From Candidatus Hermodarchaeota archaeon (lineage in GTDB: Archaea > Asgardarchaeota > Heimdallarchaeia > Hodarchaeales > Hodarchaeaceae), in contig JBHLKY010000030.1 of NCBI GenBank assembly GCA_048886185.1, forward strand, positions 9,139 to 41,138: DNA of 32,000 nucleotides, written 5' to 3'. The notes beneath the pieces were generated by a model. The model worked only from the letters and a program-made list of their open reading frames with translations, was not told where the DNA came from and searched no databases. This document shows, piece by piece, positions 213 to 18,967 of this stretch (position 1 is its first letter; every line of letters begins with the position of its first letter). The position numbers were made by a program, and so were the translations under genes.

Positions 213-1169
213 CTAGTTCGCCTTATATTTCAGCAAAGATGTTATTTCAGTTGATATTTCAAGACATACTTGTTCAATAGTAGAATAAGATTCAGAATTT
301 AATCTGAATGTCGATTCTATTCCAATTAATACTAATTTTGTTCCAATATTAACAAGTTGAGTAATCATTAAAAAGTCTTCAATTCGAAGAACATTTGTTT
401 TTGCCTCGGGGGCTATATCAAAAGCCTCATATTGGTCTAGCATCTTGATAATTTGAGGTCCGACTTTCTCTTGCCAACTTTGGTTTTTTCCTATTGCTAA
501 AAGAATCTTATGGCTTGGAGACAATAAAAAAGCTCCAGCGATGCCATATGTCTTCATTTTCTCTTCTAGTCTTTCTTTAATTCGACGTTTATTTACCAGA
601 TCTAGATTTAGTTGTGCTTCCAAAGGTCTATCTTGGGAGAATTTACTAAAATCAGCAGCTTTATTTATTATCTGAGTAAAGATTAGGTTGGTTAATCGTT
701 GTTCATCAGGCCCTTTCAATGAAACAATATAAGATGGGATTTCATTAGGAAAGAATTGTTGAAAGTTTTTGATGACTGTGTCTTTTATTTTGTTTCTTTC
801 AACCTCACTAGTTATTAAATGTCCACGGTTTAGTAAAAGAACAACTCGAAAATTTTTGTTTACACTACTAATATCTGCAGTTATCCTTTGAAAATCCGAT
901 GAGATCTCATCTAAAAGTTGATAGGAGATATCGTGTATGTAAATAAGCGTGTTTATTTTCATTAAGATCTTTTCACGAATAGAAGGAAGTAAGCTAGTAA
1001 TATAAGTCTCTTCTTTCTTTGAATGAGAGGGATTTAACCAATCATAGTAAAAAACGTTCTGTAATATCTTAAGATTTGGTTCTGTCCGTCCTAACTTCAT
1101 CATTTGGCTAAAAAGTAGGTCTTTTCCAGAATGAGATAACCCGGATAATGCGATGAGGTTTTGACGCAA
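213..1169 (-). CDS. Degenerate (pseudo) Rag-like small GTPase with C-terminal roadblock-like domain
   Basis: G1 GLSHSGKD; no DxxG (G3); G4 position NRGH; strand LIYIHDIS aligns with LVFICDIA of the neighbouring Rag. The C-terminal ~125 aa (helix, GIAGAFLLSPSHKILLA, strands, helix) has a roadblock pattern. TTG start with GAGGAG at 1180-1175. Confidence 0.7.
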   Translation of the reverse strand: MRQNLIALSGLSHSGKDLLFSQMMKLGRTEPNLKILQNVFYYDWLNPSHSKKEETYITSLLPSIREKILMKINTLIYIHDISYQLLDEISSDFQRITADISSVNKNFRVVLLLNRGHLITSEVERNKIKDTVIKNFQQFFPNEIPSYIVSLKGPDEQRLTNLIFTQIINKAADFSKFSQDRPLEAQLNLDLVNKRRIKERLEEKMKTYGIAGAFLLSPSHKILLAIGKNQSWQEKVGPQIIKMLDQYEAFDIAPEAKTNVLRIEDFLMITQLVNIGTKLVLIGIESTFRLNSESYSTIEQVCLEISTEITSLLKYKAN

Positions 1170-1179
1170 TGTGACTCCT

Positions 1180-2184
1180 CTAAATTGGTGTTTTGAGCAT
1201 TGATTCTAGCTGCATGGACAGAAGTTTAACAGTTTCTTCAATCTCTGCTAAATTTCTAGTTTCTAACATAGATTTTTCATCACTGGAGACTAGAATTAGT
1301 AAATGATGTGGTTGTAACTTAGATTTGTACATCATTACTGCTCCTAGCCTTTTTAATTCAGATTTCGATCCAGTGATTAATTTTAGATCTTTTGATTTAT
1401 CCAAAAGAGTCAATAGTTGTTGGATTTCACTATCTTCTAACTCGGAGGCATTAATTCTGAAATTGGGATCCTCCAGCGAAATTAGAATGACTTCATCTAA
1501 TCGGTTCATAAATTTAAGAGTGTGAAGTACCTGTTGAATAGGTCGAAGGCGAAGCCTTTGTTTAATCGCTTCTAAGTCTTCCTCTTCTTTCATGCTTTCT
1601 ACTTCAGGAATAACTTCACTAGCTTCTGCTGTTATCCGTTTAAATGCTTCATGGATCGAATTATCATAAATGGATGTTTGCAAAAATGTTATGTTTTTGT
1701 TTGATGCCGCATCTTGAAACATTTCCATAAGAAATTCCATTCGTTCAGCCCGTTGAGTAAGATCGGGCATGAGATCAGTCTTGTGCAGCAGGACATAGAC
1801 AGCAGGTTGTACATCAGACATCTCTTCCAAACGGCTGACACCTTCAACAAAGGCCTTGAGTGAAGCTGGAAATTTATCTGGAGTAGCAATATCACAGATG
1901 AAAACTAAGACCGCAACATTACTGAAGATGAATGAACTCATACTACTCAAAAAACGTTTTAAAAAAACCTCTTGTCCTCCTAAATCCATAACAGTGATGG
2001 GCTCGTCTGCAACCTGCTCAATCTGTCGTTCATAATTTAACGTCGCTGCATAATCCTTGGTTTCCTCTGGTGCCTTACCTTCAAAAACAACGTCACGAAT
2101 GGATGTTTTTCCCGCCTGCGAGAGTCCTAGTAAGATTATCTTCCGTGCGCTCTGCGTTTTCAGCTGTTTCAAGTAATGACTCAT
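1180..2184 (-). CDS. Rag/Gtr-family small GTPase with C-terminal roadblock-like domain
   Basis: G1 GLSQAGKTS, G2 AATL, G3 DLGGQ, G4 HKTD and G5 TSIYD match the RagA/Gtr1-type signatures (HKxD, TSIxD). ~140 aa C-terminal extension. GAGGA upstream of the ATG. Confidence 0.9.
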   Translation of the reverse strand: MSHYLKQLKTQSARKIILLGLSQAGKTSIRDVVFEGKAPEETKDYAATLNYERQIEQVADEPITVMDLGGQEVFLKRFLSSMSSFIFSNVAVLVFICDIATPDKFPASLKAFVEGVSRLEEMSDVQPAVYVLLHKTDLMPDLTQRAERMEFLMEMFQDAASNKNITFLQTSIYDNSIHEAFKRITAEASEVIPEVESMKEEEDLEAIKQRLRLRPIQQVLHTLKFMNRLDEVILISLEDPNFRINASELEDSEIQQLLTLLDKSKDLKLITGSKSELKRLGAVMMYKSKLQPHHLLILVSSDEKSMLETRNLAEIEETVKLLSMQLESMLKTPI

Positions 2185-2379: not shown

Positions 2380-2727
2380 TTGCAACAACGCAAACCGCCC
2401 GATATTTTGTGTGAGATCACATGTAGATCTTTTCGATGCAGTGAAAAACTCTTGTCGATTACATATAGTCGTGGTGAGAAGAAGATAATGTGCAGAATGA
2501 TTGAAGGCGACGAATGTATCGGTTATAAATGTAAGTTTGCTGTTTGTTTTGTTCGGCCTTCAGCTTTGGATGTTTCAACAGGTTCTTGTTCTCAAAAGCT
2601 GAAACGTCAGAGACCTCGACACACTCAAAAAGCTAGTAGTAAAGATACTTTTGACGATCCCTTGAAATATAAAAATCTACTTGACAAAAAGTTAAGAAAA
2701 AATTTCAAGCTCAAAGATTACTATTAG
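2380..2727 (+). CDS. Small Cys-rich putative metal-binding protein with basic tail
   Basis: Eight Cys (CEITCRSFRC, CRMIEGDECIGYKCKFAVC, GSC) and a Lys/Arg-rich C-terminal half. TTG start with GGAG about 10 nt upstream. Confidence 0.7.
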   Translation: MQQRKPPDILCEITCRSFRCSEKLLSITYSRGEKKIMCRMIEGDECIGYKCKFAVCFVRPSALDVSTGSCSQKLKRQRPRHTQKASSKDTFDDPLKYKNLLDKKLRKNFKLKDYY

Positions 2728-4272: not shown

Positions 4273-4526
4273 AGCTCTCTTTTCCTTTATGAGGTATTTG
4301 ATTCTGATTAGCCTATTAAGTCAATGTATTGGTTTCGTGAACTTAATATTATCTTCTTCTTGCTTGTTTTATTAAGTTTGCATTACACTTCATAATACAG
4401 TTAAATTTTATCAAAATAAGGAAAATTTAAAATTCTTTGTACCTTAAAGAAAGCAAACGATCTTATTATCCAAATTTTCGCCAAAAAAGTATTAATCATG
4501 TTAATTTTCAAATTGAGGAGTTAAAC

Positions 4527-5429
4527 ATGAAAATTTCACTTGTTGGACTTAGTGGTTGCGGTAAAACATCAATCTATTTCACTACATTGGGTGGGATGGC
4601 TCCTATGGAGACCAGTGATTTCGGGCCGACCATTATGTATGAGGTGAAGTCCCATAATTACTTGGGTCTTCAAATATCCCTGTGGGACTTCGGAGGGCAA
4701 GAAAAATATAGGCAATCGTACCTCGAGACACCTAAACTTCTCGCTAACACCACGGTGTTGGTTTTAGTCCTTGATCTCCATCATCCTGAGGATTTTAAGA
4801 AAGCAGACGATTACTTTAGGCAGGTTTATTCCGCTATTAAAGAAAATGGAGGAGATCCTCGTTTAATAATTTTCTTTCATAAATATGATACAGAGCAATA
4901 TCTTAAGGAACAGCTTGAAGAGAATCTCGACAAAGCTAGAGAATTACCATTTGTCCGAGAACTTAATCCTGAATCCTTTGTTACATCTATTTATAGACAA
5001 GAGGAATTAAGTGAGGTTTTTCGTCAAATCTTGATTTCAGACTTTGATAAATTAAAAAATAGCGTTGAACACGCTCAAAACCAACTCATGAAGCTGAATT
5101 CAAAGATCATTGTGAGTGATGTGAATGGAAATGTTATTACTCATAGTATCAAGGGTTTTTCAACGGGAATCCAGCTTCGTGAAGATTTGCGTGATTATAT
5201 TCTTTCCTGTAATGTATTACGTGAAAATTTCCTCACAAGTGATTCAGCTTCTTTTTCTGCCATTTCTGATTCAAAGACATTAGAATTGCATATTTTTAAT
5301 TTTGTTCTAGCTGTACTCATTATGGTAGATAAAGGGGTAAAAGTTGATCCCCCTGAAGATATCGAAGCTTTGCTAAAAGATATGAAAGTGTTTGCAGAAT
5401 TAATCATTGAAGCTAGTAGAGAAGATTAA
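4527..5429 (+). CDS. Second Rag/Gtr-family small GTPase with C-terminal roadblock-like domain
   Basis: G1 GLSGCGKTS, G2 GPTI, G3 WDFGGQ, G4 HKYD, G5 TSIY, plus C-terminal IIVSDVNGNVI roadblock-like strands. Start moved from the track's 4437 to ATG 4527, which has GAGGAG at 4515-4520 and lies directly before the P-loop strand. Confidence 0.9.
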   Translation: MKISLVGLSGCGKTSIYFTTLGGMAPMETSDFGPTIMYEVKSHNYLGLQISLWDFGGQEKYRQSYLETPKLLANTTVLVLVLDLHHPEDFKKADDYFRQVYSAIKENGGDPRLIIFFHKYDTEQYLKEQLEENLDKARELPFVRELNPESFVTSIYRQEELSEVFRQILISDFDKLKNSVEHAQNQLMKLNSKIIVSDVNGNVITHSIKGFSTGIQLREDLRDYILSCNVLRENFLTSDSASFSAISDSKTLELHIFNFVLAVLIMVDKGVKVDPPEDIEALLKDMKVFAELIIEASRED

Positions 5430-5796: not shown

Positions 5797-6282
5797 TTGA
5801 TTGTTGAAGAAATAGGGAATACAACCCTTCAAAAGATATTTACATCAAAAAAGAGGAGTCGAAGTAGCTTAATCCCAATTTTACAAGACATACAAAGTGA
5901 ATTTGGGTATTTATCTAAAGAAAACATGATTCATATTGGGGAATATATTGGAATGTCATTTAACGAAGTTTATGGGGTTGCTTCATTCTATAAACAATTC
6001 AAATTTGTTAAATCTGGAAAACATATAATAACTGTATGTTTAGGAACAGCTTGCTTTGTAAAGGGCGGTCAAATACTCGCTGAAACTGTAAGAACAAAAT
6101 TAGGTATTAATCCAGATGAAACTACAGAGGATAGGTTATTTAGTTTTGAACGTGTTGCTTGTTTAGGATGTTGTGCCTTATCTCCAGTTGTTCAAATTGA
6201 TGGGGAAGTTTATGGAGAAATGAAACCAGCAAAATTACTTCGAATTATCAATAACATAATTAGGGAAGAAAATAATAAGTAG
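5797..6282 (+). CDS. nuoE: NuoE/HydC-family [2Fe-2S] subunit
   Basis: LIPILQDIQ, EVYGVASFY, CLGTAC and CLGCCALSP motifs. TTG start with GGAGG upstream. Confidence 0.93.
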   Translation: MIVEEIGNTTLQKIFTSKKRSRSSLIPILQDIQSEFGYLSKENMIHIGEYIGMSFNEVYGVASFYKQFKFVKSGKHIITVCLGTACFVKGGQILAETVRTKLGINPDETTEDRLFSFERVACLGCCALSPVVQIDGEVYGEMKPAKLLRIINNIIREENNK

Positions 6283-6293
6283 GTAACTGGATA

Positions 6294-8120
6294 ATGACCA
6301 AAAAAAATTCTTCTCTTAGAACAGTTCTAATTTGCCAAGGAACAGGATGTATCTCATCAAAATCAAATGAGATTAAAGAGGAATTTGAAGAACAGATAAT
6401 TGCGGAGGGTCTAGAAAATGAGGTGAAAGTAGACTTCACTGGTTGTCATGGATTCTGTGCTCAAGGTCCTATTGTGATAATTGAACCAGATGGAATTTTG
6501 TATTGTAAGATTAAAGTGGTAAATGTCAAAAACATTGTTACTTCACATTTGAAAAACATCCGGCCTGTTGAAGAATACTTTTACACCGATCCTAAATCTG
6601 GAAGGAGAATATCAAAGTATAAAGATATTCCTTTTTATAGTAAACAGACACGAATGATTTTAGGTAACTGCGGACACATTAATCCTGAAAATATTGACGA
6701 TTATTTGCACATTGGTGGTTATTCAGGACTTAAACGAGCATTGAAAACCTCTCCCGAAGAGGTTATTCAAATTATTAAAAATTCTGGTTTACGTGGGAGA
6801 GGAGGCGCAGGTTTCCCAACTGGCATGAAATGGGAATTCTGTCGTAATGCACCTGGAAACGAGAAATACATTATTTGTAATGCAGATGAAGGAGATCCTG
6901 GAGCTTTTATGGATCGTTCAATACTTGAAGCAGATCCACACAGCGTTTTAGAAGGAATGATTATCGGAGCATATGCCATTGGCGCTTCTAAAGGCATTAT
7001 CTATGTTCGTGCTGAATATCCTTTAGCAGTTAAGCGTTTTAGATTTGCTCTTGAAACAGCAAGAAAAAATGGATTTCTTGGAGAAAATATTCTAAATAAT
7101 GGATTTTCATTCGATATTTCCGTTCATGAAGGTGCAGGCGCTTTTGTTTGTGGCGAAGAGACAGCATTGATGGCCTCAATAGAAGGAAACAGAGGTAATC
7201 CACGACCTAGGCCACCATTTCCAGCAGAGTCTGGCCTTTGGGGTAAACCCACCAATATCAATAATGTAAAGACATGGGCTTCTACTGCGTGGATTTTTAA
7301 AAATAGTTGGGAGAAGTTTCACGCTATTGGTGTTGAACATGCACCTGGTACAGCGATTTTCTCACTAACAGGGAAAGTTAAGAATTTGGGCTTAATAGAA
7401 GTACCTATGGGTATCAGTATAAGAGAAATCGTCTATGAAATAGGTGGTGGTATTTTAGATGATAAGGAATTTAAAGCTGTTCAGACTGGAGGTCCTTCAG
7501 GTGGATGTTTACCAAAAAGTCATTTAGACTCCCCTGTTGATTATGAAAGCATGGCTACTTCTGGTAGTATTATGGGTTCAGGTGGAATGATTGTTCTTGA
7601 TGAAACTGATTGTATGGTAAAATTAGCTCATTATTTCATAACATTTACACAAGCTGAGTCTTGTGGGAAATGTGTCCCCTGTCGGATCGGAACAAGAGCA
7701 ATGTTGGTTATTCTAGATCGGATTATAAAAGGAGAGGGTGAAGACCGAGACCTCATGCTTTTAGAAGAATTAGCCAATACGGTAAAAATGGGATCATTAT
7801 GTGGGCTTGGCCAAACCGCACCAAATCCCGTATTAACTACATTGAAATATTTTCGTAATGAGTATCAGACCCATATTTTTGAAAAACGTTGTCCTGCTAA
7901 AGATTGTCAAGATCTGATTGAATACGTAATTGATGAAGCTATTTGTAATGGATGTACATTATGTGCCCGCAACTGCCCAATGAAGGTCATCACAGGGATT
8001 AAAGGAGCTACTCACATGATTGATACAAATAGGTGCATTAGATGTGGTATCTGTTTCAAAAGTTGTCCTAGAAACGCAGTGTACAAAAGGGATCGGTATC
8101 CTCAGCAGGTGAAAAGATGA
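6294..8120 (+). CDS. nuoF: NuoF/HydB-family FMN/NADH-binding subunit, long (bifurcating-type) architecture
   Basis: N-terminal [2Fe-2S] domain (CQGTGC, CHGFC); GLRGRGGAGFPTG; NADEGDPGAFMDR; GAGAFVCGEETAL; SCGKCVPCRIG/CGLG; HIFEKRCPAKDC; two C-terminal CxxCxxCxxxC motifs. Confidence 0.95.
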   Translation: MTKKNSSLRTVLICQGTGCISSKSNEIKEEFEEQIIAEGLENEVKVDFTGCHGFCAQGPIVIIEPDGILYCKIKVVNVKNIVTSHLKNIRPVEEYFYTDPKSGRRISKYKDIPFYSKQTRMILGNCGHINPENIDDYLHIGGYSGLKRALKTSPEEVIQIIKNSGLRGRGGAGFPTGMKWEFCRNAPGNEKYIICNADEGDPGAFMDRSILEADPHSVLEGMIIGAYAIGASKGIIYVRAEYPLAVKRFRFALETARKNGFLGENILNNGFSFDISVHEGAGAFVCGEETALMASIEGNRGNPRPRPPFPAESGLWGKPTNINNVKTWASTAWIFKNSWEKFHAIGVEHAPGTAIFSLTGKVKNLGLIEVPMGISIREIVYEIGGGILDDKEFKAVQTGGPSGGCLPKSHLDSPVDYESMATSGSIMGSGGMIVLDETDCMVKLAHYFITFTQAESCGKCVPCRIGTRAMLVILDRIIKGEGEDRDLMLLEELANTVKMGSLCGLGQTAPNPVLTTLKYFRNEYQTHIFEKRCPAKDCQDLIEYVIDEAICNGCTLCARNCPMKVITGIKGATHMIDTNRCIRCGICFKSCPRNAVYKRDRYPQQVKR

Positions 8121-9727
8121 CTAAATGGATGACTATCAACGGAAAACGTGTAGTGTTCGAGGAAGGAGAAACAGTACTCGAAGTTGCAACAAAAGCAGGG
8201 ATATATATCCCCACTCTCTGTGCGAGACCTGATCTTCCTTCAATAGGTGCATGTCGCCTATGTATTGTAGAAGTCGAAGCTGGTCGGGGATTTTCCAATT
8301 CTTGTACTTTACCAGCAAGAGAAGGAATGATTGTCAGAACAGAAACACCTAATATCAGAGCGATAAGACGAAACATTTTCCAATTAATTCTTTCGGAACA
8401 TCCTAGCTCTTGTATTGTATGTAATAATCAGGAGGAGTGTGAGGAAGTCCGTCATGGAGAGTACAAGGCGGGTCGAGTGATTGGTTGTTACACATGCAGT
8501 AATAAGGATCGATGTGAAATCAGAGAGCTGGCCGAATACTTACGAATAAAAGAAATCCGATTTCCAAAGTTGTATAAGAATTTGCCATTAGAACGGGAAG
8601 ATCCATTTCTTGTTCGAGATTATAATCTCTGTATTCTCTGTGCTCGATGTATTAGAGCGTGTCAGAATGTTTTGGGGCATAGTGCTATCACACTCACTAA
8701 ACGAGGTCATGATACAAAAGTAGGAACATTACTAGAAATCCCTCATCTTGAAAGTGGATGTGTATTTTGTGGGCATTGTATAGATGTTTGTCCGACAGGA
8801 GCATTAACTGCTCGAGGATCTAAGTGGTTTGGTACTCCTGATAAGTCAATAGAAACAACATGCGTTTTATGTTCACATAATTGTCAAATGGTCATCGATA
8901 TAAAATGGGATAAAGTTGTAAATGTTCATCCACCTTATGAGATGTCAGCTCGTCGTGAATATTGTGTTAAGGGCCGTTTTTGCATTCCCGCACTAATTAA
9001 CGGCCGAGATCGTCTTCAATATCCAATGATTAAGCGTACAATCATTAAAGAGGAACTCTTTCCTGCATCTTGGGAAGAAGCCATTAATTATGCTGCAGAG
9101 AATTTGAAAAAGTTTAAACCTGAAGAGATAGGTATTTTTATTTCTCCATTTTTAACAGATGAGGCTGTATTCATACTTAACAAGTTCGCTCTACAAGTAA
9201 GCGAGAATAATATTGCTTATGACGACAAAGCACTCCAAGATTTAGCAGCTCAAGGAATCAAATTATTATATGCAACACAAAGATCCAAAGAACTTCTTAA
9301 AATGAAGGATCTAGAATTCTTAATTCTTCAAGATATTTATTATTCTAACTATTGTGAAATAGCAGGGGTTATTTTTCCAATGACAGCTTTTACTGAAGAG
9401 GAAGGCACAAAAACAGGAGATGAATTCATGAGAAATCCAGTTAGACAGGCAGCTGAACCAGTTGGGCTTGCTCTTCCTAGTTGGGATATTACCAATCGTT
9501 TGGCAAAGGCTATGAACTTAGAAGGATTCTCATATAGCTCACTGAACGATGTTCAGGATGATATTGTGAAAGAAGATCCTATTGAAATCCCATTGGTTCC
9601 AAAATCTTCCCTTGAATACTTAGGAATTCCTTTTGTTGAGAAAGTAAAAGATTTTCAAACTTTTTTTAATGCTAAACGACTAATCCATAAAACAAAAGGC
9701 AAAGGTGAGTTCATTGTCAATTTATAA
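8117..9727 (+). CDS. NuoG/FdhA-like Fe-S subunit with truncated molybdopterin domain and no catalytic site
   Basis: PTLC..GACRLCIVEV..SC [2Fe-2S]; HPSSCIVC; CILCARCIRAC; CVFCGHCIDVCPTGAL; TTCVLCSHNC..CVKGRF. Only remnants of the Mo-bisPGD fold follow (ASWEEAI, LILQDIY, VIFPMTAFTEEEGT). No H-cluster motifs. ATGA overlap with the upstream gene. Confidence 0.85.
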   Translation: MTKWMTINGKRVVFEEGETVLEVATKAGIYIPTLCARPDLPSIGACRLCIVEVEAGRGFSNSCTLPAREGMIVRTETPNIRAIRRNIFQLILSEHPSSCIVCNNQEECEEVRHGEYKAGRVIGCYTCSNKDRCEIRELAEYLRIKEIRFPKLYKNLPLEREDPFLVRDYNLCILCARCIRACQNVLGHSAITLTKRGHDTKVGTLLEIPHLESGCVFCGHCIDVCPTGALTARGSKWFGTPDKSIETTCVLCSHNCQMVIDIKWDKVVNVHPPYEMSARREYCVKGRFCIPALINGRDRLQYPMIKRTIIKEELFPASWEEAINYAAENLKKFKPEEIGIFISPFLTDEAVFILNKFALQVSENNIAYDDKALQDLAAQGIKLLYATQRSKELLKMKDLEFLILQDIYYSNYCEIAGVIFPMTAFTEEEGTKTGDEFMRNPVRQAAEPVGLALPSWDITNRLAKAMNLEGFSYSSLNDVQDDIVKEDPIEIPLVPKSSLEYLGIPFVEKVKDFQTFFNAKRLIHKTKGKGEFIVNL

Positions 9728-10601
9728 TATCGTTAAAAAATATGAATGTGTTCCAAACATCCATAAGTTAATCATCTCAGTACCAGAAATAGCTAAAAAG
9801 GCCCAACCAGGGCAATTCGTACTCGTAATGGTAGATGAGAAATCTGAGAGAATTCCATTAACAATTGCTGATTGGGATGTGACTACAGGAACTATTACAT
9901 TATTTGTTCAAGAAGTTGGATTGTCTACAACAAAATTTGCTTTTATGGAAGAAGGAGATTCATTTTTTAGTATTGTGGGCCCCTTAGGAAAACCTGCCTA
10001 CCTGGATAAATTTGGAACTGTAGTATTGGGAGGTGGTTGTTTTGGGATTGGAGCTATCTATTCAATAGCTAAAAAGCTCAAGAAATTGGAAAATTACGTT
10101 ATCACTATAATTGAGGCAAGAAATGACTGGCTTTTGTATTTTGAGGATGAATTTCAATCTATAAGTGATGAAGTTATCGTGACAACTAGTGATGGGTCAA
10201 AAGGATCAAAAGGGTATATCTATGATGTTCTTGACAATATGATTACAGAAGGACGGGAAATTGATCATATAAAAGTTATTGGATGTAATGTCATGATGAG
10301 TAAGGTTTCAGCCCTCACTAAAGAAAAAGGTTCCATTCCAACCTATGCAACTGTCTCAGCAATTATGGTGGATGGTACTGGGATGTGTGGAGCTTGTCGT
10401 TTGACATATGATGGAAAAACAAAATTTGCATGCGTGGATGGCCCAGAGTTCAATGCACACAAAATTGATTGGGAGGAACTAATACAAATCCGAAATACAA
10501 CTTATATTCAGGAGGAAACCCTTGCTTTCCAAACTCATTCCCCACAATGTCTATCTCTAAAGAGATTTGCAGAAATAAAAGATGAAGAGGAATTATTTTG
10601 A
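9705..10601 (+). CDS. nfnA: Nfn small subunit (NfnA/SudB, PyrK-like FAD/[2Fe-2S] protein)
   Basis: AQPGQFV, ERIPLTIAD, GPLGKP, MVDGTGMCGACR, CVDGPEF. The true start may be TTG 9714, with GGTGA 5' of it. Confidence 0.93.
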   Translation: MSSLSIYNIVKKYECVPNIHKLIISVPEIAKKAQPGQFVLVMVDEKSERIPLTIADWDVTTGTITLFVQEVGLSTTKFAFMEEGDSFFSIVGPLGKPAYLDKFGTVVLGGGCFGIGAIYSIAKKLKKLENYVITIIEARNDWLLYFEDEFQSISDEVIVTTSDGSKGSKGYIYDVLDNMITEGREIDHIKVIGCNVMMSKVSALTKEKGSIPTYATVSAIMVDGTGMCGACRLTYDGKTKFACVDGPEFNAHKIDWEELIQIRNTTYIQEETLAFQTHSPQCLSLKRFAEIKDEEELF

Positions 10602-12331
10602 AGGCAAAGGAAAGAATGCAAATTTCTAGGGTGTCTATGCCAAGTCAACCTCCAGAGGTACGTGTTAAGAACTTCCGTGAGGTTCCTTATGGTTACACAG
10701 AAGAAATGGCTGTAGAAGAAGCCAACCGTTGTCTTGGATGTAAAACACCAAAATGTATCGAGGGGTGTCCTGTTCGTGTACCAATTCCAGAGTTTATCAC
10801 ATTAATACAAGAAAGAAAGTTTGCAGAAGCAGCATGGAAAATTAAAGAAACAAATGTCCTCCCAGCAATATGTGGACGTGTATGTCCTCAAGAGGCACAA
10901 TGTGAGGGAAAGTGTGTTCGTACGAAAAAGGGCGAATCTGTTGCTGTTGGTAACCTTGAACGATTTGTTGCTGATTATGAACGGTTAAAAGATATTGTTC
11001 CTAAAATAAATATCGTGCAAAAAAATGGGAAAAAAGTGGCAGTTATAGGGAGTGGTCCCTCGGGGTTGACTGTTGCAGGAGATTTAATAAAATTAGGATA
11101 TGAGGTAATCATTTTTGAAGCGTTTCACCTTGGTGGTGGCGTTCTTGTTTATGGAATTCCGGAATTTCGTTTACCTAAAGCAGTTGTGGAATATGAGATA
11201 CAGAATCTTAGCAAACTAGGAGTACAAATCTCTTATAATCATGTAGTTGGCCGTATTAAAACCATTGGGGAACTATTTGCTAATGATGATTTTGATGCTG
11301 TTTATATTGGTGTTGGAGCTGGTTTACCAGTTTTTATGAATATTCCAGGGGAAAACCTTATTGGGGTCTATTCTGCCAATGAATATCTTACACGCTCAAA
11401 TTTAATGAAATCATATCTTTTCCCCGAGTATAATACTCCTTTAGTAAGTGGAAAAGATGTTGTGGTCGTGGGTGGAGGGAATACTGCAATGGATGCTTCT
11501 AGAACCGCTATACGATTAGGGGCAGCTAATGTTTACCTTGTCTATCGTCGCTCAAGAGAACAGATGCCTGCGCGAACATTGGAGGTACATCACGCTGAAG
11601 AAGAGGGAATTCAATTCAAACTTTTATCTAATCCTGTTGAGATCATTGGTGACGAAAAAGGTCGAGTTAAAGCAGTTACTTGTCAAAGATATCGTCTTGG
11701 AGAACCAGATAAATCTGGAAGAGCTCGTCCTATACCAATAGAAGGTGAGTTCTTTGAGCTAAAAACTGATTTAGTCATTATAGCTGTCGGAACGGGGGCG
11801 AATCCTCTAATCACAGCCACAACACCAGATCTAGAAACTAATAAGTGGGGGTATCTCGTAGCAGACGAGATGGGCCGTACTAGTAAACCATTTGTATATG
11901 CAGGTGGCGACATTGTTACAGGAACAGCAACTGTAATTTCAGCAATGGGGGCGGGTCGTCGAGCAGCTCAAGCAATACATGAGGATCTCTTTCCAGTGGT
12001 CAAGGAAGAACCCGAAAGAATTCGAATAGTTTCCGAGATTATACAAGTAAAAGAAGCCATAATACATCCTGAATCTACAACAATGAAAATTATATTAGCC
12101 AATACATCAGGAAGAGATCTCAAGAATCTAAAAATTGTTGTTTCACATCTCTTTGATTTGTTTGAAGAACCCTTATTTAATACATCTGTCTCAAGCTGGC
12201 CATCAAATGAAGAGCTGGAACTTGATTGTCCCCGAATTCATAAAAATGAAAAAGAATATCTTTTATCCATAAGAGATTTAGACAGAAAATTGTTATCAAA
12301 GCGACTTGTTGCTGAAGAACTAATGAAGTAA
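10598..12331 (+). CDS. nfnB: Nfn large subunit (NfnB/SudA, GltD-like) with an extra ~110 aa C-terminal domain
   Basis: CLGCKTPKCIEGCPV, CGRVCPQEAQCEGKC, GSGPSGL, YGIPEFRLP, GGGNTAMD, YRRS, YAGGDIVTG. The core ends near AAQAIHEDL (~11990) and is followed by the extension. TTGA overlap with nfnA. Confidence 0.93.
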   Translation: MKAKERMQISRVSMPSQPPEVRVKNFREVPYGYTEEMAVEEANRCLGCKTPKCIEGCPVRVPIPEFITLIQERKFAEAAWKIKETNVLPAICGRVCPQEAQCEGKCVRTKKGESVAVGNLERFVADYERLKDIVPKINIVQKNGKKVAVIGSGPSGLTVAGDLIKLGYEVIIFEAFHLGGGVLVYGIPEFRLPKAVVEYEIQNLSKLGVQISYNHVVGRIKTIGELFANDDFDAVYIGVGAGLPVFMNIPGENLIGVYSANEYLTRSNLMKSYLFPEYNTPLVSGKDVVVVGGGNTAMDASRTAIRLGAANVYLVYRRSREQMPARTLEVHHAEEEGIQFKLLSNPVEIIGDEKGRVKAVTCQRYRLGEPDKSGRARPIPIEGEFFELKTDLVIIAVGTGANPLITATTPDLETNKWGYLVADEMGRTSKPFVYAGGDIVTGTATVISAMGAGRRAAQAIHEDLFPVVKEEPERIRIVSEIIQVKEAIIHPESTTMKIILANTSGRDLKNLKIVVSHLFDLFEEPLFNTSVSSWPSNEELELDCPRIHKNEKEYLLSIRDLDRKLLSKRLVAEELMK

Positions 12332-12454
12332 GTAATACAAGTTGGTTATTAGTGGTTATAAGGGAAACTGTTTAGAGACAACCGATGACTTTAATTTATT
12401 TTGATCTTTTTTGCCACTTATAGATAGAATGTTTGAATCATTTATTTTAGTTAC

Positions 12455-12874
12455 TTAATCTTCTTTTGATTTTAGTGAGAGGGATTCTAAGGAGTTGAAA
12501 GCGGCTAAAATATCGTAGGATGTTATTATCCCTACCAAATTATTGCTAACGGGATTTATTACAGGAATTCTTTTTATTCTATATTTAGACATTAGCTTTA
12601 ACGCGTCTTTAACGGTTTCTTCTGAAGAAATTGTAATAAGGTTTTTTGTTGCAATGTCCCCTGCTTTGACTGTACAAGGATCATTACAATTTAGCACAAC
12701 TCTTGCGATAATATTTTGTTTTGTTATTATTCCAAGATTTTTTTGATCTTTATAAACCAACACTGAACCTACTTTTTTTTCGACCATTAATTGAGCTACC
12801 TTCTCAACACTTTCATTGGGATTAACAGCTACAATCTCTTTCGTCATAAAATCTTTTACTTTAGTTCTATTCAC
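12455..12874 (-). CDS. Stand-alone CBS-pair protein
   Basis: VKDFMTKEIVAVNP..SVEKVAQLM..VGSVLV..GIIT and AGDIATKNLITI..ALKLM..IKRIPVI..GIITSYDI. GTG start 11 nt after the upstream stop. Confidence 0.92.
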   Translation of the reverse strand: MNRTKVKDFMTKEIVAVNPNESVEKVAQLMVEKKVGSVLVYKDQKNLGIITKQNIIARVVLNCNDPCTVKAGDIATKNLITISSEETVKDALKLMSKYRIKRIPVINPVSNNLVGIITSYDILAAFNSLESLSLKSKED

Positions 12875-12885
12875 GACATAACTTC

Positions 12886-13914
12886 CTATCCTTGAATTCT
12901 TTTTAGCATTATTGTTTCATTTTCGTCTTCAATTTTAAGGAAATAGATCATACCAGTTCCTTCAGAGGGTTCAAATTCAAAGGAAATGATTTCTTTTGGG
13001 GCCCATTTTCTTATTTCTGAAATAAGGACATCTTTTCCGAAAAATCCATGTGATTCATATATTTTGAGAAGAACATTTTCTAAAATGGTTGAACTAATGT
13101 TACGAACTGTGATACGAATGATTTTTTTGTCTTTAGGGGATTCAACTTGAATAATTTTTACACGTTTTGGTTCTGGTTTTAAGATTTCCTCTTTTTTACT
13201 ATCTGAAATCTCCTGTTGTTTTATTGTAGGTATTAAAAATCTTAATTTTTCTGGCCTTTTAGGTACTGAAGGGATACTAGGTTTCTGAAATTGATAGCTT
13301 TCTGAATTTGGTTTTTGCTCCAGTTCATTTTCTTTTAATTGTGCTTTAAGCTTTGTAATGGGGATTTTCGGAATTAAAGAATGATATTTACTCTCAAGGA
13401 GTTCTCTGATGTGTTTAGACCTTTCTATGACTTCTGGCTCTTTACTTTCCTCAAGTATATCTTCAATGAGGAAACGCAATCTTAAACTGACGTGATAATT
13501 TTCGAGGGTTATTTTAAATTGGTACAATATTTCCTGAGCGATAAAAGAAACCGATGAAGGGGCCTTGACGATCAAAATAAATCTATCAAGTTGCCATTTG
13601 GCAGATTCCATTCCTGAGCGTCTTTTAATTCTACGTGTTTCACAAAAAGATATTGTAGCACAGTAAATAACATCTCCTATCTCAAGATCGATGCTGGTAA
13701 ACTTATCTGTATCTAGGAATTTTTCCTGGTGCCACCATACTGGATGAATGGATAATATTTGTTTTTCATTTTCATCGGTCAATAATTCTTCTGGATATCC
13801 AAATAGTGGGACATGGCCTCTAATTTCGTCAAAAAAATAGAGAAAGAATCCATACGAATTGTCGCTGGCTAAAGAAACAATATTTTTTGTTGAGGGGATA
13901 TCCCCGTTACTCAT
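12886..13914 (-). CDS. Longin/uDENN-like protein 1 with C-terminal shared domain
   Basis: N-terminal GFFLYFFDEIRGHVPLFGYP fits the uDENN/longin start pattern (FDxxxG..YP). A Pro/Lys/Glu-rich linker precedes a C-terminal beta-rich domain. Paralogous to 14394..15341. Confidence 0.7.
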   Translation of the reverse strand: MSNGDIPSTKNIVSLASDNSYGFFLYFFDEIRGHVPLFGYPEELLTDENEKQILSIHPVWWHQEKFLDTDKFTSIDLEIGDVIYCATISFCETRRIKRRSGMESAKWQLDRFILIVKAPSSVSFIAQEILYQFKITLENYHVSLRLRFLIEDILEESKEPEVIERSKHIRELLESKYHSLIPKIPITKLKAQLKENELEQKPNSESYQFQKPSIPSVPKRPEKLRFLIPTIKQQEISDSKKEEILKPEPKRVKIIQVESPKDKKIIRITVRNISSTILENVLLKIYESHGFFGKDVLISEIRKWAPKEIISFEFEPSEGTGMIYFLKIEDENETIMLKRIQG

Positions 13915-13947
13915 GACTACGCCTTTCTCCTTTATTCTAAAATCTAA

Positions 13948-14151
13948 TCAATCTAAGCTGATTTTAAAGGATTTCTCTCTATTTATCACATTTACACAAA
14001 ATTTCGATTTTAATCTTTTTTGTTTTTCATGAGAGATTATGGAGAAATCATCCGACAATAATATGGGAGTTAATGAAAAAGGGATCTGATGACAATAATC
14101 AGGTAAGATTGACAATAAAAGCTCTTTTATTTGCTTATTGTCTAAAATCAA
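13948..14151 (-). CDS. Possible small hypothetical protein (67 aa)
   Basis: ORF on the same strand between the two longin-like genes, ending 33 nt before the next start. No motif and no convincing SD. Confidence 0.3.
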   Translation of the reverse strand: MILDNKQIKELLLSILPDYCHQIPFSLTPILLSDDFSIISHEKQKRLKSKFCVNVINREKSFKISLD

Positions 14152-14393
14152 CCCCTTTTTTAATCCTTTTCTACATAAAAGGCATATAATGATTTAATAG
14201 TCTTCTATAATGCTAGAGAAATATTTTTCATTTCTTCAGAGTAAAATTACGACAAAAAGGGGTAACCTCTTTACTCTATTAAACGTTTTTTCAAACAATT
14301 TCTAGTATCATATCTTGATCATTAAAGGAACTTCAAACAATGCAAAGAATATAAATTTCTAAAGATGATTTTATCATTGGAGATATACTTAAA

Positions 14394-15341
14394 TTAACTA
14401 GCATTAGTAGAAGCAATCTCAAGGGACTTTATGTCTATTGTTGTATTTCTACTAGTAATCTTTATCAAATACTTCCCAATTACGTCAGATTTGGAAAATT
14501 CTAGGATTATATCTTCTTTTAAAGGCCATTCTTCAAGTTTATGCTCCCAAATAGTTTCACTAAAAAACTCTGTTCTTCTTGACACATGAATCCTTATATC
14601 ATATAAATTTTCACTCTGATTAATTAATACTACCATTAATCTATTCTTATTTTCCTCTGTTGGTAAGACTCTCATGGTTATTTTTTGCTTAAACAAATCC
14701 TGAGCACAAAGACTTGTCTCTACTGGAATCATGGAGGAATTGACTCGACTTGGTATTATCTCTGTGCTAAAAGGCTCTATATTTTTATTAATTCCATAAA
14801 CAAATTTTTTCCAAATATTTTTAAGGGACAATTCGATTTCTACGGCTTTTTTTAGTAATTCATCGTGTTCTCGTTTTTTGATCGGATTTAATGCCAATTT
14901 TTCTCGTTGATATAATATCTCAAGATCTGAACCAATATCCGAATTTATTGTTGTTTTTAAATCAACAAATGCTTTAACGGGTATAGGATCACTATCTTTC
15001 CATTTTTTGATGACGATTCCATAGAGAGGGTGATCAATTGTTGACAACGATCCCTCTTGGGAATCTTCTTGAAGCTGAATAGCTGAGTAAACAAATTCTG
15101 AAAATTTTAAATCAATTCGAAAAGGAACATTTTCAATTTTCCACACACAATGAGTTTTTAGAATATTAATTTCATTTTGATTTTTTTTCAATTTTGATGG
15201 GTATGAAAAGAGGATACGAAGGCCATGAGTAGTATCAAAAGAACACAAAAAAAATCCTATTAGGCCAACTTTTGAGTCAAAAGTTTGCTTATCGGTTGCA
15301 GGTTCAATATCAGTATCAAATACGGGATCGATATTCATCAT
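14394..15341 (-). CDS. Longin/uDENN-like protein 2 with C-terminal shared domain
   Basis: GFFLCSFDTTHGLRILFSYP..NE..IL..H.VW..IDL..Y.A aligns with protein 1, and the C-terminal domain is also homologous. AGGAG upstream of the ATG. Confidence 0.7.
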   Translation of the reverse strand: MMNIDPVFDTDIEPATDKQTFDSKVGLIGFFLCSFDTTHGLRILFSYPSKLKKNQNEINILKTHCVWKIENVPFRIDLKFSEFVYSAIQLQEDSQEGSLSTIDHPLYGIVIKKWKDSDPIPVKAFVDLKTTINSDIGSDLEILYQREKLALNPIKKREHDELLKKAVEIELSLKNIWKKFVYGINKNIEPFSTEIIPSRVNSSMIPVETSLCAQDLFKQKITMRVLPTEENKNRLMVVLINQSENLYDIRIHVSRRTEFFSETIWEHKLEEWPLKEDIILEFSKSDVIGKYLIKITSRNTTIDIKSLEIASTNAS

Positions 15342-15704
15342 TTCTCCTTATGTTTCTAATTTATTGAAAAGAAATAATCCTTTTGAAATAGTTTACTCTC
15401 GTAAGTGTTAAACCTTTTCCACTTCAAAAGTTTTATTAAATAGTTTAAAAGCATGTTTAATAACGTAACAAGATTTTTAGTGACCATCTGATATTTTTAA
15501 TGTGGTTTTACAGCTCAACTATAGAAAAATCTATTTAATTATCGATAAAAACCTACTATTGTAGCATAGTAACACTATTTTTCCCCAAAACTACTACAGA
15601 AAATCCATTATCCTATGAAACAAAATTTTTTAGTATATTCTCATTTACTCACATCAGTAGAAACAATTCATCAAATAACTTTGGAACGTTTGGAGAAGAA
15701 CATT

Positions 15705-17534
15705 TTGAGTACACAAGTGTGGGATCTCATTGTAGTGGGAGGTGGGCCTGCTGGTCTTTCTGGTGCTATTCGTGCTGCAGAATTAGGCCTTCATGTCCTT
15801 GTCCTCGAGGCACGTTCTGGAGTCGCTACCGCAGGTAGTATGGTTGTGGATGGGTATCCTGGCTTTTTTAGTATTACTCGCCAAGAACTACTAGATAAGA
15901 TGGCTAAACAGGCGAAATATCATGCGACCATTAAGTATGCAGAGAAAGTTAGTAAACTTGAACTTCACGATCCTGTAAAAAGAGTTTACACACAGGTGAC
16001 CAAAGGAGAGTTCTTCACCGAAGAGTTCATATATGACAGTAGGGCTATATTAATCGCTACTGGGGTTCAACCAAGGAAACTTGATATTCCCGGTGAAGGA
16101 AAATTCTGGAATCGTGGTGTATATTACTCTCTTCCAGACGAAGATTACTCGGAAAAAAATGTTGCTATTATAGGGCATACAGCTTGGGCGGTTAGAAATG
16201 CACTTCATTATGATGCCATGGGCGCTCATGTTTACCTGATTACAAATAAGGAGGCAATTGATGTTCATCCTGCACTCATGAGAAGATTAAATGAGAGCTT
16301 TATTGAAGTTTTATACTCACATGAAATATTGTATTTTGAAGGTACAAATAAGTTAACTAAAACACGTCTTAAAAGTAGAGATGGAAAACAGTTTTCTATC
16401 CTTACTAACATGGTATTGATCTTAAGTAGCAAGAGTACAAATCGTGAATTATTCCTAGATGCTGGTTTAGAGACTACACCTCAAGGAAATATTATTGTTT
16501 CATCACCCAATCAGAACACAAATATCCCTGGTGTTTTTGCTGCCGGTAGTGCTATAAGAGGTGATTCAGTTGTGGGTGTGGGGGCTGCTGAAGGTATAAA
16601 AGCTGCAGAAGAAATATCTAAATATTTAGCTAGAATAGATGAAGAAAAGGAGGCTGAAGAACAACAAGAAAAGCCATCTCCTGTTCCTAGGTTCGTTGAA
16701 GGCAAATGTGTGATAGTTGAGAAAGAAGATCTTTCTCCAGAAATAGTCAAGTGGGTAGTTGAGGCACCTTTAATTGCAAAGAAAACTCAACCAGGCCAAT
16801 TTGTGATTCTCAGAGTAGATGCAAACGGAGAACGAATTCCTTTAACTATAGCAGATAATGACAAAAACGCTGGGACGATAACTTTGATTTTTCAAAAAGT
16901 CGGAAAAAGTACTAAATTAATGGGAACCATGAAAACAGGTGATCATATTCTTAATCTTCTAGGTCCCTTGGGAAAACCCGTTGAAATTGAGAAATGGGGT
17001 ACGGTGGCTGTTTTAGGTGGTGGTTGTGGTGTTGCCCCAGTACTACCTAAAGCTAAAGCACTTAAAGAGCGGGGGAATTATGTTGTGAGCATTATTTCAG
17101 CTAGAACTTCATCACTCTTGATTTGTCGTCAAGAGATGCAAGAAGCAAGTGATGAAATTCACATTGCTACTGATGATGGAACCTTAGGTCATCATGGGTT
17201 TGGACTTGATATCTTAAAACGTTTTGTGGAAGAAGGAAGACAGATAGATCATGTTGTAGCAGTTGGTCCTATTCCTATGATGAAATTCACTTGTGCTTTC
17301 ACTAAAGAACATAACATTCCAACAACTGTTAGTTTAGCACCTATCATGGTAGATGGGACTGGAATGTGTGGCTCTTGTCGCGTGACTGTGGGTGGTGAGA
17401 TTAAGTTTGCCTGTGTTGATGGTCCAAACTTTGATGGATTAAAAGTGGATTTTGAAGAATTAACCCTCAGATCAAGGGCTTATCTCTACGAGGAGCGAAT
17501 TTCAACAGAAAAAATGGCTCGTGAGAAATCTTAG
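15705..17534 (+). CDS. Fusion of a thioredoxin-reductase-like flavoprotein domain (no CxxC) and an Nfn small subunit
   Basis: N-half: DLIVVGGGPAG, ILIATG, IPGE..RGVYY, TNIPGVFAAG. Acidic linker EEKEAEEQQEKPSP. C-half: QPGQFV, ERIPLTIAD, GPLGKP, GGGCGVAP, MVDGTGMCGSCR, CVDGP. Start moved from 15615 to TTG 15705 (GGAG at 15692-15695). Confidence 0.9.
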   Translation: MSTQVWDLIVVGGGPAGLSGAIRAAELGLHVLVLEARSGVATAGSMVVDGYPGFFSITRQELLDKMAKQAKYHATIKYAEKVSKLELHDPVKRVYTQVTKGEFFTEEFIYDSRAILIATGVQPRKLDIPGEGKFWNRGVYYSLPDEDYSEKNVAIIGHTAWAVRNALHYDAMGAHVYLITNKEAIDVHPALMRRLNESFIEVLYSHEILYFEGTNKLTKTRLKSRDGKQFSILTNMVLILSSKSTNRELFLDAGLETTPQGNIIVSSPNQNTNIPGVFAAGSAIRGDSVVGVGAAEGIKAAEEISKYLARIDEEKEAEEQQEKPSPVPRFVEGKCVIVEKEDLSPEIVKWVVEAPLIAKKTQPGQFVILRVDANGERIPLTIADNDKNAGTITLIFQKVGKSTKLMGTMKTGDHILNLLGPLGKPVEIEKWGTVAVLGGGCGVAPVLPKAKALKERGNYVVSIISARTSSLLICRQEMQEASDEIHIATDDGTLGHHGFGLDILKRFVEEGRQIDHVVAVGPIPMMKFTCAFTKEHNIPTTVSLAPIMVDGTGMCGSCRVTVGGEIKFACVDGPNFDGLKVDFEELTLRSRAYLYEERISTEKMAREKS

Positions 17535-17548
17535 GAGGAACTAGAAAT

Positions 17549-18967
17549 ATGTCAACAAAAAAATCAAAAAGACAAAGAGTTCACATGCAAGCCCAAGACC
17601 CTGCCGAGCGAATTCGAAACTTTGAAGAGGTAACTTTAGGGTACACAGAGAGTGAGGCGATAGAGGAAGCTTCTCGCTGTCTCCAGTGTAAACGCCCACG
17701 CTGTATCCAAGGATGCCCTGTTAGTGTGCGAATACCCGAGTTCATTTTAAAGTTAAGGGAGGGTGATATTGATACGGCAAAAGAAATAATTTTATCTACA
17801 AATAGTCTACCTGCCATCACGGGACGAGTTTGTCCGCAAGAAAATCAATGTCAGGAGTTCTGCATTCACCCTAATGCAATAAGTATCGGTGCACTCGAAA
17901 GATTTGTTGCTGATCATGGAAAACGACCTGAAGTCTCCTCTCGTGAGAAATATCCAACTAAGGTTGCAGTAGTTGGATCTGGTCCATCGGGATTGACTTG
18001 TGCAGCTGAGTTAGCAAATCTTGGTCATGAAGTAACCGTTTATGAGGCACTACATGAGCTTGGTGGAGTTCTGAGATATGGTATTCCTGAATTTAGAATG
18101 CCAAAGAAGATAGTGAATGAAGAAATAGATTATGTAAGAAGCTTAGGAGTTAAATTAGATACAGATATATTGATTGGAAAGACATTAACAGTCGATGAGC
18201 TTCTAAATGAAAAAGGATTCAATGCTGTATATATTGCAGCGGGTGCAGGAACCCCCAACTTTCTTGGTATCCTAGGGGAGACCTTAAGAGGTGTTTTTTC
18301 CGCAAATGAATTTTTAACTCGCGTTAATCTTCTAAAAGGGTATGAATTTCCAGAATATGACACTCCTGTAACTGTTGGAGAAAAAGTTGCTGTCGTTGGG
18401 GCAGGAAACGTAGCAATGGACTGTGCGCGAACAGCACTCCGTTTAGGAGCTCGTGAAGTCGATATTATTTATCGTCGCTCTGAAGGGGAAATACCCGCAA
18501 GATTAGAAGAAATTATCCACGCGAAAGAAGAGGGAGTTGTCATAGGGGAGCTAACATCTCCGATTGAAATGCTTGGTAATAAAAAAGGAATGATAATTGG
18601 ACTAAAGTGTATTCAAATGACTTTAGGACAATTGGATGAGTCTGGTCGTCGAAGACCAATCCCCATCCCTAACTCCGATTTTATTTTCCCTGTGGATACT
18701 GTGATAGTAGCCATTGGTCAGCGACCCAACCAGTTAATAGCTCAAACCACTTCAGAGCTAGAAACTACAAAATGGGGAACTATTGTACATGAAAAAGAAA
18801 CAGGAAAGACTACTAAGGAACGTGTATATACTGGAGGCGATGTTGCTACTGGAGCAGCAACTGTTATTTTAGCTATGGAAGCTGGTCGAAATGCTGCTAA
18901 AGCAATTCATAAGATGATTCTTGAGAAAGATTTGGAAATTCAAACTGAGTTAATACAAACCGAATAA
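17549..18967 (+). CDS. nfnB: Second Nfn large subunit (NfnB/SudA, GltD-like), standard length
   Basis: CLQCKRPRCIQGCPV, GRVCPQENQCQEFC, GSGPSGL, YGIPEFRMP, GAGNVAMD, YRRS, YTGGDVATG. GGAGG upstream. Confidence 0.93.
   Translation: MSTKKSKRQRVHMQAQDPAERIRNFEEVTLGYTESEAIEEASRCLQCKRPRCIQGCPVSVRIPEFILKLREGDIDTAKEIILSTNSLPAITGRVCPQENQCQEFCIHPNAISIGALERFVADHGKRPEVSSREKYPTKVAVVGSGPSGLTCAAELANLGHEVTVYEALHELGGVLRYGIPEFRMPKKIVNEEIDYVRSLGVKLDTDILIGKTLTVDELLNEKGFNAVYIAAGAGTPNFLGILGETLRGVFSANEFLTRVNLLKGYEFPEYDTPVTVGEKVAVVGAGNVAMDCARTALRLGAREVDIIYRRSEGEIPARLEEIIHAKEEGVVIGELTSPIEMLGNKKGMIIGLKCIQMTLGQLDESGRRRPIPIPNSDFIFPVDTVIVAIGQRPNQLIAQTTSELETTKWGTIVHEKETGKTTKERVYTGGDVATGAATVILAMEAGRNAAKAIHKMILEKDLEIQTELIQTE

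Follow-up and report, generated by a model that had tools for sequence, protein, structure and literature searches.

The 32,000-nucleotide stretch of DNA analyzed here (the window, in whose numbering all positions are given) is part of contig JBHLKY010000030.1 of a Candidatus Hermodarchaeota archaeon (assembly GCA_048886185.1, positions 9,139 to 41,138 of the forward strand). It encodes three proteins, an oxidoreductase and two longin-type proteins, that end in a related C-terminal domain of about 95 residues, which we refer to as the tag. The oxidoreductase is a probable NfnB, with a Fer4_20 domain (two [4Fe-4S] clusters), an FAD/NADPH-binding Pyr_redox_2 domain and an adjacent NfnA-type partner; this partner, a 298-residue protein encoded upstream, has a DHODB_Fe-S_bind domain, and a match to it is the NfnA half of a TrxR-NfnA fusion in the same window. 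Pfam coverage of the tagged NfnB (Fer4_20, Pyr_redox_2) stops near residue 460, and its core is 51% identical to a second NfnB of the locus, NfnB2, which ends ahead of the tag and does lack the domain, as a first-pass annotation of the window had noticed. The two remaining carriers, proteins 1 and 2 of that annotation, are called lonA and lonB here; scanned at full length, neither has a Pfam match. The open reading frames (ORFs) of all three carriers are present as described, and their coordinates are collected in Table 1.

The first-pass annotation had aligned NfnB with lonA over 69 residues without gaps and counted 13 identities. The count is reproduced exactly and at the same positions, the alignment starting at residue 502 of NfnB and residue 272 of lonA, and only 0.09% of shuffles at the fixed register equal it. 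BLASTP of the C-terminal segments pairs NfnB with lonA at E 2e-5 (26% identity over 102 residues), NfnB with lonB at E 2e-4, and lonA with lonB at E 1e-4. With family profiles, hhalign joins the NfnB extension to the lonA domain (Prob 94.7, E 6e-8) and to the lonB domain (Prob 96.4, E 1.2e-9), and the two longin-side domains to each other (Prob 96.9, E 2e-10). The proposed homology of the three segments is thus borne out by two kinds of comparison, and the sequence likeness among them far exceeds chance. In a whole-genome profile search of the 4.84-Mb genome, the tag occurs exactly three times, on NfnB, lonA and lonB; a weak fourth match (C13:122553, E 0.31) is gone with a profile built from 138 sequences. 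The lonA and lonB families are paralogues over their full length (hhalign Prob 99.2, E 3e-19, 282 columns), each with 60–70 relatives labelled Hodarchaeales, Heimdallarchaeota or Promethearchaeota, bar two likely mislabels, and their genes are adjacent in many metagenome-assembled genomes (MAGs), as judged from consecutive locus tags.

The tag had been guessed to be a β-sandwich, and the AlphaFold2 (AF2) models agree with this. Both the NfnB extension, modelled from the combined 138-sequence alignment (seven strands, predicted local distance difference test, pLDDT, 82), and the C-terminal block of lonA (pLDDT 75–95) are predicted to form a seven-stranded immunoglobulin (Ig)-like sandwich; the folds agree, and the profile comparisons given above are significant. 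The model of whole lonA, made from the lonA alignment (pLDDT 77.5; predicted template-modelling score, pTM, 0.56), comprises a longin-type α/β domain (residues 19–140), a helical region (142–199), a disordered linker (201–245) and the sandwich (252–341). The pLDDT falls below 50 in the linkers, at residues ∼469–478 of NfnB and 201–245 of lonA. In exhaustive VIA-align searches, the tag reaches Z 8–10 to many Ig-like domains, with root-mean-square deviations of 2.4–3.4 over 85–98 residues at Z 9–10; its structural neighbours include Ig domains of GH2 and GH3 glycosidases, DUF3244, ASF1, transglutaminase C-domains and a Methanosarcina surface-protein domain. The closest models in the ESM Atlas are three clusters of ∼345-residue Asgard proteins (template-modelling score, TM, 0.82–0.89), followed by a 299-member FrhB_FdhB cluster at TM 0.79 and then by CARDB, DUF11 and NEW3 clusters at TM 0.61–0.74. 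A comparison with adaptin ears yields the BBSome chain 6vbu_9 at Z 8.7, amid a crowd of Ig-like matches, and the sole Pfam GAE_BBS1 match, at E 0.015, is to a single arrestin-like carrier. A Foldseek row for β-arrestin (9dnm_A, rmsd 25) is meaningless.

By sequence, the tag belongs to no recognized family, as had been suspected. None of the 138 tag sequences reaches a Pfam threshold in hmmscan, and no CARDB, DUF11 or NEW3 match is seen among them; the best recurrent family, Por_Secre_tail, is found on 20 of the 138 members with a best E of 0.0027, below its cut-off. No PDB chain is matched in sequence by the lonA or tag profiles at E ≤ 1.

The first-pass description of proteins 1 and 2 as longin/uDENN-like stands in its first half only. 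The N-terminal domain of the lonA model (residues ∼19–190) aligns in VIA-align with 8fw5_B (Z 10.2), 3egd_C (Z 10.0), 6nzd_H (Z 9.9) and 8adl_S (Z 9.6). Chains of GATOR1, FLCN-FNIP2 and the SEA complex lie at Z 9.6–10.2, and Sec22, VAMP7 and AP-3 sigma at Z 9–10, with Z 9.1–10.0 for the first two. Because the latter score as high as the GATOR1 and FLCN chains, only a longin fold can be claimed from the model, with no subfamily assignable; a uDENN assignment is not established. Within the lonA family, a G33-H34-x-P36 motif is invariant and the arginine ahead of it is not conserved (consensus DExxGHxPLF); lonB retains at this position only an invariant Gly. The lonA motif takes the place of the GP motif of the GTPase-activating longins of eukaryotes (NPRL2, FLCN and SMCR8), whose catalytic arginine finger adjoins that motif in the β1–β2 loop (PMC12290439). 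A later, Arg/Lys-rich loop of lonA (residues 93–102) contains invariant R95, R99, G101 and M102 and a near-invariant K97; it is absent from lonB.

We next turn to where the tag occurs. An exhaustive hidden Markov model search of 1.84 billion protein representatives returns 64 tag matches at E ≤ 1e-3. These are longin-tag proteins, fragments, FrhB/FdhB-like flavoproteins of 494–510 residues with a C-terminal tag, one Helarchaeota protein combining longin, tag and four CBS domains, and a few weak matches to giant multi-Ig surface proteins (E 1e-5 to 1e-4); the longin-tag, FrhB-tag and longin-tag-CBS kinds account for nearly all of them. The tagged FrhB-like proteins, an alternative carrier, combine FrhB_FdhB_N/C with two [4Fe-4S] domains, and their tag matches the combined tag profile at Prob 97.7 (E 2e-12). 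NfnB-tag proteins are not among the 64 representatives, presumably because untagged NfnB proteins stand for their 50% clusters; six-frame genome searches do recover them, in 10 of the genus's 22 genomes (our own included) and in one further MAG. A word-indexed protein search returns five clusters of NfnB with the tag, an underestimate of their spread. No other NfnB-like protein is found among the tag matches in the searches made. The domain therefore is neither a ubiquitous module (64 of 1.84 billion), nor is its fusion to NfnB confined to this genome (11 loci), and on these sequence matches the tag appears almost private to Asgard archaea, the names on representatives beyond the genus including Helarchaeota, Sigynarchaeota and Promethearchaeota.

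Within the GTDB genus, every one of the 21 remaining genomes carries the tag, in most cases as exactly three copies, which lie on a single contig in 18 of the 20 loci fetched; two of the tag-containing frames are ∼310–370 residues long and the third is either ∼581–588 or ∼492–509. One genome (G018, 5.9 Mb) has five copies, with two extra lonA-like genes off the main locus (C6:393588-393869 and C41:247102-247374). Across the phylum (301 genomes), the tag is found in families f1 (20/20), f12 (5/5), f14 (65/68), f18 (3/3) and f23 (6/6), and in the single genomes of f22, f29 and f30 (1/1 each); a search of the remaining 22 families gave essentially no further carriers (0/76, 0/19 and 1/29 in three of them). 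The subfamily of the Rag-type GTPase encoded beside the tagged enzyme, searched in the same 301 genomes at E ≤ 1e-50, is present in f1, f12, f14, f22, f23, f29 and f30, and none is detected elsewhere. Only f18 and a single f3 genome have the tag without this Rag; otherwise the two distributions coincide at the family level. In the class of our genome, the tag and the Rag subfamily occur essentially only in its own family, and all other carriers belong to other classes. This patchy distribution suggests loss or transfer. The sequencing runs that hold the locus are DNA metagenomes from sediment or estuary, with no RNA run among them.

The arrangement of the genes was compared in 20 fetched genus loci, the window and two MAG contigs, annotated with profiles made from the window genes. 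In 22 loci of Hodarchaeales type, one frame recurs: NfnB2, a TrxR-like-NfnA fusion, lonB-tag, lonA-tag, a CBS gene, a slot, the Rag GTPase, a major facilitator superfamily (MFS) transporter, a small ORF and further Rag-like genes. The slot is filled in one of two ways. In 11 loci, it holds one gene only, which is FrhB-like and ends in the tag; in the other 11, the window included, it holds a NuoE-NuoF-NuoG-NfnA-NfnB block, with the tag on NfnB and all five genes present each time (compare window positions 5797-12331 with L005:11516-12991 and loci L018–L037). In the window, the Rag gene is followed by this block with its tagged NfnB, a layout kept in the 11 NfnB-type loci unless the contig ends first, and the FrhB-type loci show the equivalent Rag-adjacent layout. 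The CBS gene lies between lonA and the tagged enzyme in 20 of the 22 loci. NfnB2 is never tagged in the loci of the genus. Our own genome has no tagged-FrhB orthologue, its best match to the FrhB core being 28% identical, and no arrestin-like tag carrier among its three tag copies.

Carriers of the last kind are seen only in other families. Five further Asgard families contribute six loci in which the FrhB-tag gene directly adjoins the orthologue of the window Rag (E about 1e-76 to 1e-99, vs ∼1e-16 to 1e-22 for paralogues), and in which a tag-ending protein of 376–398 residues is encoded alongside, whose middle part has a sub-threshold match to Arrestin_C (E 0.004–0.075). Arrestin-like carriers next to Rag lie at L008:7070-8242, L009:2902-4032, L010:11726-12922, L011:12420-13592, L012:5736-6869, L014:6734-7921 and L017:2040-3209; their tags match at E ∼1e-6 to 1e-7. 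A CBS gene and a longin-tag gene occur within a few kilobases in most of the six loci. In the Helarchaeota protein P0168 (641 residues), longin, tag and four CBS domains are joined in a single chain; at L017:4983-6335, tag and CBS share one ORF that is truncated by the contig end. Such fusions support a physical tie of the CBS protein to the same putative assembly as the tagged longins.

These comparisons bear on how NfnB came by its tag. A tree built from 82 tag domains has the NfnB tags as a monophyletic group (ultrafast bootstrap 100), sister to the FrhB tags of Hodarchaeales (81), with the lonA, lonB and arrestin-type tags in separate clades. The mean identity of the NfnB tag is 30–36% to FrhB tags vs 23–24% to the lonA and lonB tags. 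Because both tree and identity favour the FrhB tags, the NfnB tag descends from the enzyme-side lineage and was not copied from a neighbouring longin tag, and the data fit its having been carried over when the enzymes were exchanged. NfnB is not the original carrier: half of the genus, like the other Asgard families, has a tagged FrhB/FdhB-like flavoprotein in the corresponding gene slot. A tree of the frame genes calls for at least two enzyme exchanges within the genus; with key nodes at 38–70% support, it leaves the direction, and any number beyond at least two, unfixed. The NfnB-tag genes are intact in 11 of 11 cases (577–578 residues), and the median pairwise dN/dS is 0.11 for the tag vs 0.05 for the catalytic core. 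This value is that of purifying selection, and therefore the tag on NfnB is kept by selection.

The remaining genes of the window extend the picture of the locus. Next to lonB lie the TrxR-like-NfnA fusion (639 residues) and NfnB2; this is so for 17 of the 20 loci fetched, for the window and for both MAG contigs, and the locus therefore holds a second Nfn-type system in constant synteny. At the other end, positions 213-2727, with two Rag-like genes and a 115-residue ORF, form the right-hand part of the frame conserved in relatives. The NuoG-like subunit (8117-9727, 536 residues) has a short Molybdopterin match only (its best stretch being residues 299–372 against positions 1–78 of the 353-position profile) and looks like a truncated subunit of the formate-dehydrogenase/HydA type.

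Table 1. Tag-containing proteins and associated genes in the window
Feature	Position	Strand	Basis or remark
NfnB/GltD-like catalytic core	10598..11983	+	Pfam Fer4_20 E 4.5e-42, Pyr_redox_2 E 1.9e-40
NfnB-like protein, full ORF	10598-12331	+	577 aa
Low-confidence linker before NfnB tag, ∼17 residues	11984-12034	+	AF2
Predicted Ig-like tag on NfnB, residues ∼480-577	12035..12328	+	Ig profile match to residues 480-571, E 1e-21
CBS-pair protein, 139 aa	12455..12874	-	Pfam CBS E 2.6e-30
lonA (protein 1), ORF	12886-13914	-	342 aa
Predicted Ig-like tag on lonA, residues ∼247-342	12889..13176	-	Ig profile E 1e-31; AF2 strands at residues 252-341
Predicted longin-fold domain and helical region of lonA, residues ∼17-199	13318..13866	-	AF2; VIA-align
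lonB (protein 2), ORF	14394-15341	-	315 aa
Predicted Ig-like tag on lonB, residues ∼217-315	14397..14693	-	Ig profile E 2e-31
Predicted longin-fold region of lonB, residues ∼21-181	14799..15281	-	Full-length paralogy with lonA (hhalign)
NuoE-, NuoF-, NuoG-like and NfnA-like genes	5797..10601	+	Pfam; with NfnB a co-directional five-gene block
Rag/Gtr1-type GTPase beside the tagged-enzyme slot	4437..5429	+	Pfam Gtr1_RagA E 1.4e-20
TrxR-like-NfnA fusion and untagged NfnB2, left flank	15615..18967	+	Pfam; synteny
Untagged NfnB2	17549-18967		472 aa
Second Rag-like GTPase	1180-2184		Gtr1_RagA E 9.5e-36
Degenerate Rag-like protein	213-1169		E 1.6e-4, under the cut-off
ORF of 115 aa without family	2380-2727		

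The reading that we favour, and to which we give about even chances, is that the tag is a module-specific docking domain that sets a low-potential flavoenzyme in a signalling assembly of Rag GTPase, longins and CBS protein. The tag would then be the membership mark of a module made up of lonA, lonB, the CBS-pair protein, one particular Rag-type GTPase and a low-potential flavin/iron-sulfur oxidoreductase, in which lonA and lonB may form a pair resembling NPRL2/NPRL3 or FLCN/FNIP in fold. Carriers would be docked into one assembly either tag to tag or via a common partner such as a Rag dimer. The enzyme could read the redox state of ferredoxin and NAD(P)H (or F420) and the CBS protein the adenylate state, both being coupled to the GTPase switch; alternatively, the Rag switch may control the enzyme. 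In the line of our genome, the NfnB of a NuoEFG-NfnAB operon would have replaced an FrhB-like enzyme such as the other surveyed Asgard families have, taking over its slot together with an enzyme-type tag. The enzyme swap with the tag retained argues that such a module needs a tagged low-potential flavoenzyme rather than one particular enzyme. The comparisons above establish homology, fold, narrow distribution, synteny, the swap with tag retention and purifying selection, and one carrier at the locus is in every case a low-potential flavin/iron-sulfur oxidoreductase; physical binding and the direction of signalling are what we infer.

A predicted complex of lonA, lonB and the NfnB tag scores 0.01, a result that we count neither for nor against assembly. 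Several observations weigh against the docking proposal. The fold of the tag is very common, and with so many unrelated Ig-like domains at similar Z scores the structure gives no hint of a partner. Neither lonA nor lonB has a conserved arginine in the β1–β2 loop of its family consensus, so that activity as a GTPase-activating protein (GAP) is not implied for either; they may act as GAP, guanine-nucleotide exchange factor or scaffold. Related genomes are non-independent observations for both synteny and co-occurrence. Finally, two genomes (G014:C46, locus L030, and G015:C4, locus L031) keep FrhB-tag with no detectable lonA/lonB pair, and the tag can therefore persist without the longins. In both, FrhB-tag lies beside a shorter Rag-like ORF (232 residues) and an MFS gene, with no CBS gene nearby and no second tag copy.

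The same observations can be read in ways that do not involve a complex. The tag might bind a small ligand, a lipid or the membrane, with its carriers co-localized or co-regulated by one signal, an alternative that we consider unlikely. It originates in the Foldseek search with the lonA model, whose top matches include PDE6-delta, UNC119 and RhoGDI (E about 1e-4, TM by target 0.35–0.46). Each of these is an Ig-like sandwich that binds lipid and handles small GTPases, and the conserved aromatic pair and Trp of the tag (FF...W) could line a pocket. However, the TM values are low, the exhaustive VIA-align searches place none of these chains among their top 50, and the tag has ∼95 residues against ∼140–150 in PDE6-delta; the Foldseek lead was thus not borne out, and it is kept only as a rival of low weight.

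Still less probable, in our estimate, is a generic appendage that serves stability or homo-oligomerization and has spread between neighbours by local recombination, its carriers sharing no function. Ig-like add-ons are common on prokaryotic enzymes, and the copies here lie within a few kilobases of one another, where the shuffling of domains between neighbours is easiest. Local spread sits poorly, however, with an arrangement conserved across distant Asgard families, with purifying selection on the tag and with an NfnB2 that is never tagged in the same locus; moreover, the tag survived the exchange of enzymes, and the NfnB copy is of enzyme type rather than derived from the adjacent lonA and lonB tags. 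The least probable of the alternatives is an intramolecular regulatory lid, gating, for example, the GTPase-binding face of a longin or, in NfnB, the sites for NADPH and ferredoxin, and thereby regulating the carriers in parallel without assembly. The linkers are predicted to be flexible enough to permit docking within a chain, but a single homologous lid would need to suit NfnB, FrhB, longin and arrestin-like carriers, three or four folds unrelated to one another, and the AF2 model of lonA (pTM 0.56) does not confidently pack the tag against the longin domain.

A bolder form of the docking proposal, which we consider doubtful, is that Hodarchaeales and several Lokiarchaeia-type lineages possess an assembled hub in which Rag works under an NPRL2/3-like longin heterodimer, the inputs come from the CBS protein as adenylate sensor and from a docked electron-bifurcating or F420/ferredoxin oxidoreductase as reporter of the redox state of the cell, and a private Ig ‘ear’ holds the parts together. 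Such a hub would be a prokaryotic forerunner of Rag nutrient sensing, with a sensor enzyme exchangeable as a cassette.

Asgard genomes encode dozens of small GTPases together with longin or roadblock proteins, and many placements put the lineage of our host nearest to eukaryotes. Asgard archaea are known to have Rag-family GTPases and longins of the NPRL2-like and FLCN-like kinds (10.1101/2020.10.19.343400; PMC12290439; PMC10933270), and because the genes for GTPases and for their regulators do not, as a rule, share an operon, it is difficult to predict which belong together (PMC10933270). In the present case, a partner set can be nominated from the rarity of the tag, the strict gene order and the agreement of the phyletic patterns: a Rag GTPase, two longins, a CBS protein and a redox enzyme. 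The natural replacement of FrhB by NfnB with the tag kept comes close to a built-in control. If the binding is true, a eukaryote-style GTPase switch would be tied to energy and redox metabolism, and the module would offer a tractable in vitro system for the role of Rag and longins before lysosomes and TOR. We found no paper that describes the tag domain, reports it on either FrhB or NfnB, or deals with this locus. The known kind to which the locus belongs is the Rag GTPase with longin regulators; what is new is the undescribed tag domain and the unexpected redox-enzyme member, and in its Hodarchaeales form the longin pair is duplicated, the arrestin-type carrier is absent and FrhB is replaced by NuoEFG-NfnAB with an enzyme-type tag on NfnB.

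Among known systems, the tag itself compares best with the prokaryotic Ig-like domains CARDB (PF07705), DUF11, NPCBM_assoc/NEW3, DUF3244 and the Ig domains of GH2 and GH3, which are likewise seven-stranded sandwiches of about 90 residues; the VIA-align scores are Z 9–10 for GH2 Ig and DUF3244 and Z 8.9 for the Methanosarcina surface-protein domain. Those domains are usually carried by glycosidases and surface proteins, whereas the carriers of the tag are redox enzymes of the soluble kind and signalling-type proteins, each with one C-terminal copy and encoded in Rag-linked Asgard loci (the exceptions being the P0168 fusion, and f18 and the one f3 genome without Rag). The enzyme side resembles NfnAB and the bifurcating transhydrogenases of HydABC/Stn type in its NfnB/GltD domain set, its NfnA partner and the NuoE/F/G-like subunits of its operon, and differs from them in the tag on the window NfnB. 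Finally, the closest counterparts of the signalling side are the NPRL2-NPRL3 pair of GATOR1 and FLCN-FNIP, with which the locus shares two paralogous longin-fold proteins encoded together near a GTPase of the Gtr1/RagA family. The likeness of lonA and lonB to these proteins is one of fold only, with no Pfam or PDB sequence match; they end in the Ig-like tag instead of a DENN or NPRL2-type C-terminal domain, and the eukaryotic complexes contain nothing that corresponds to the tagged redox enzyme or the CBS protein.

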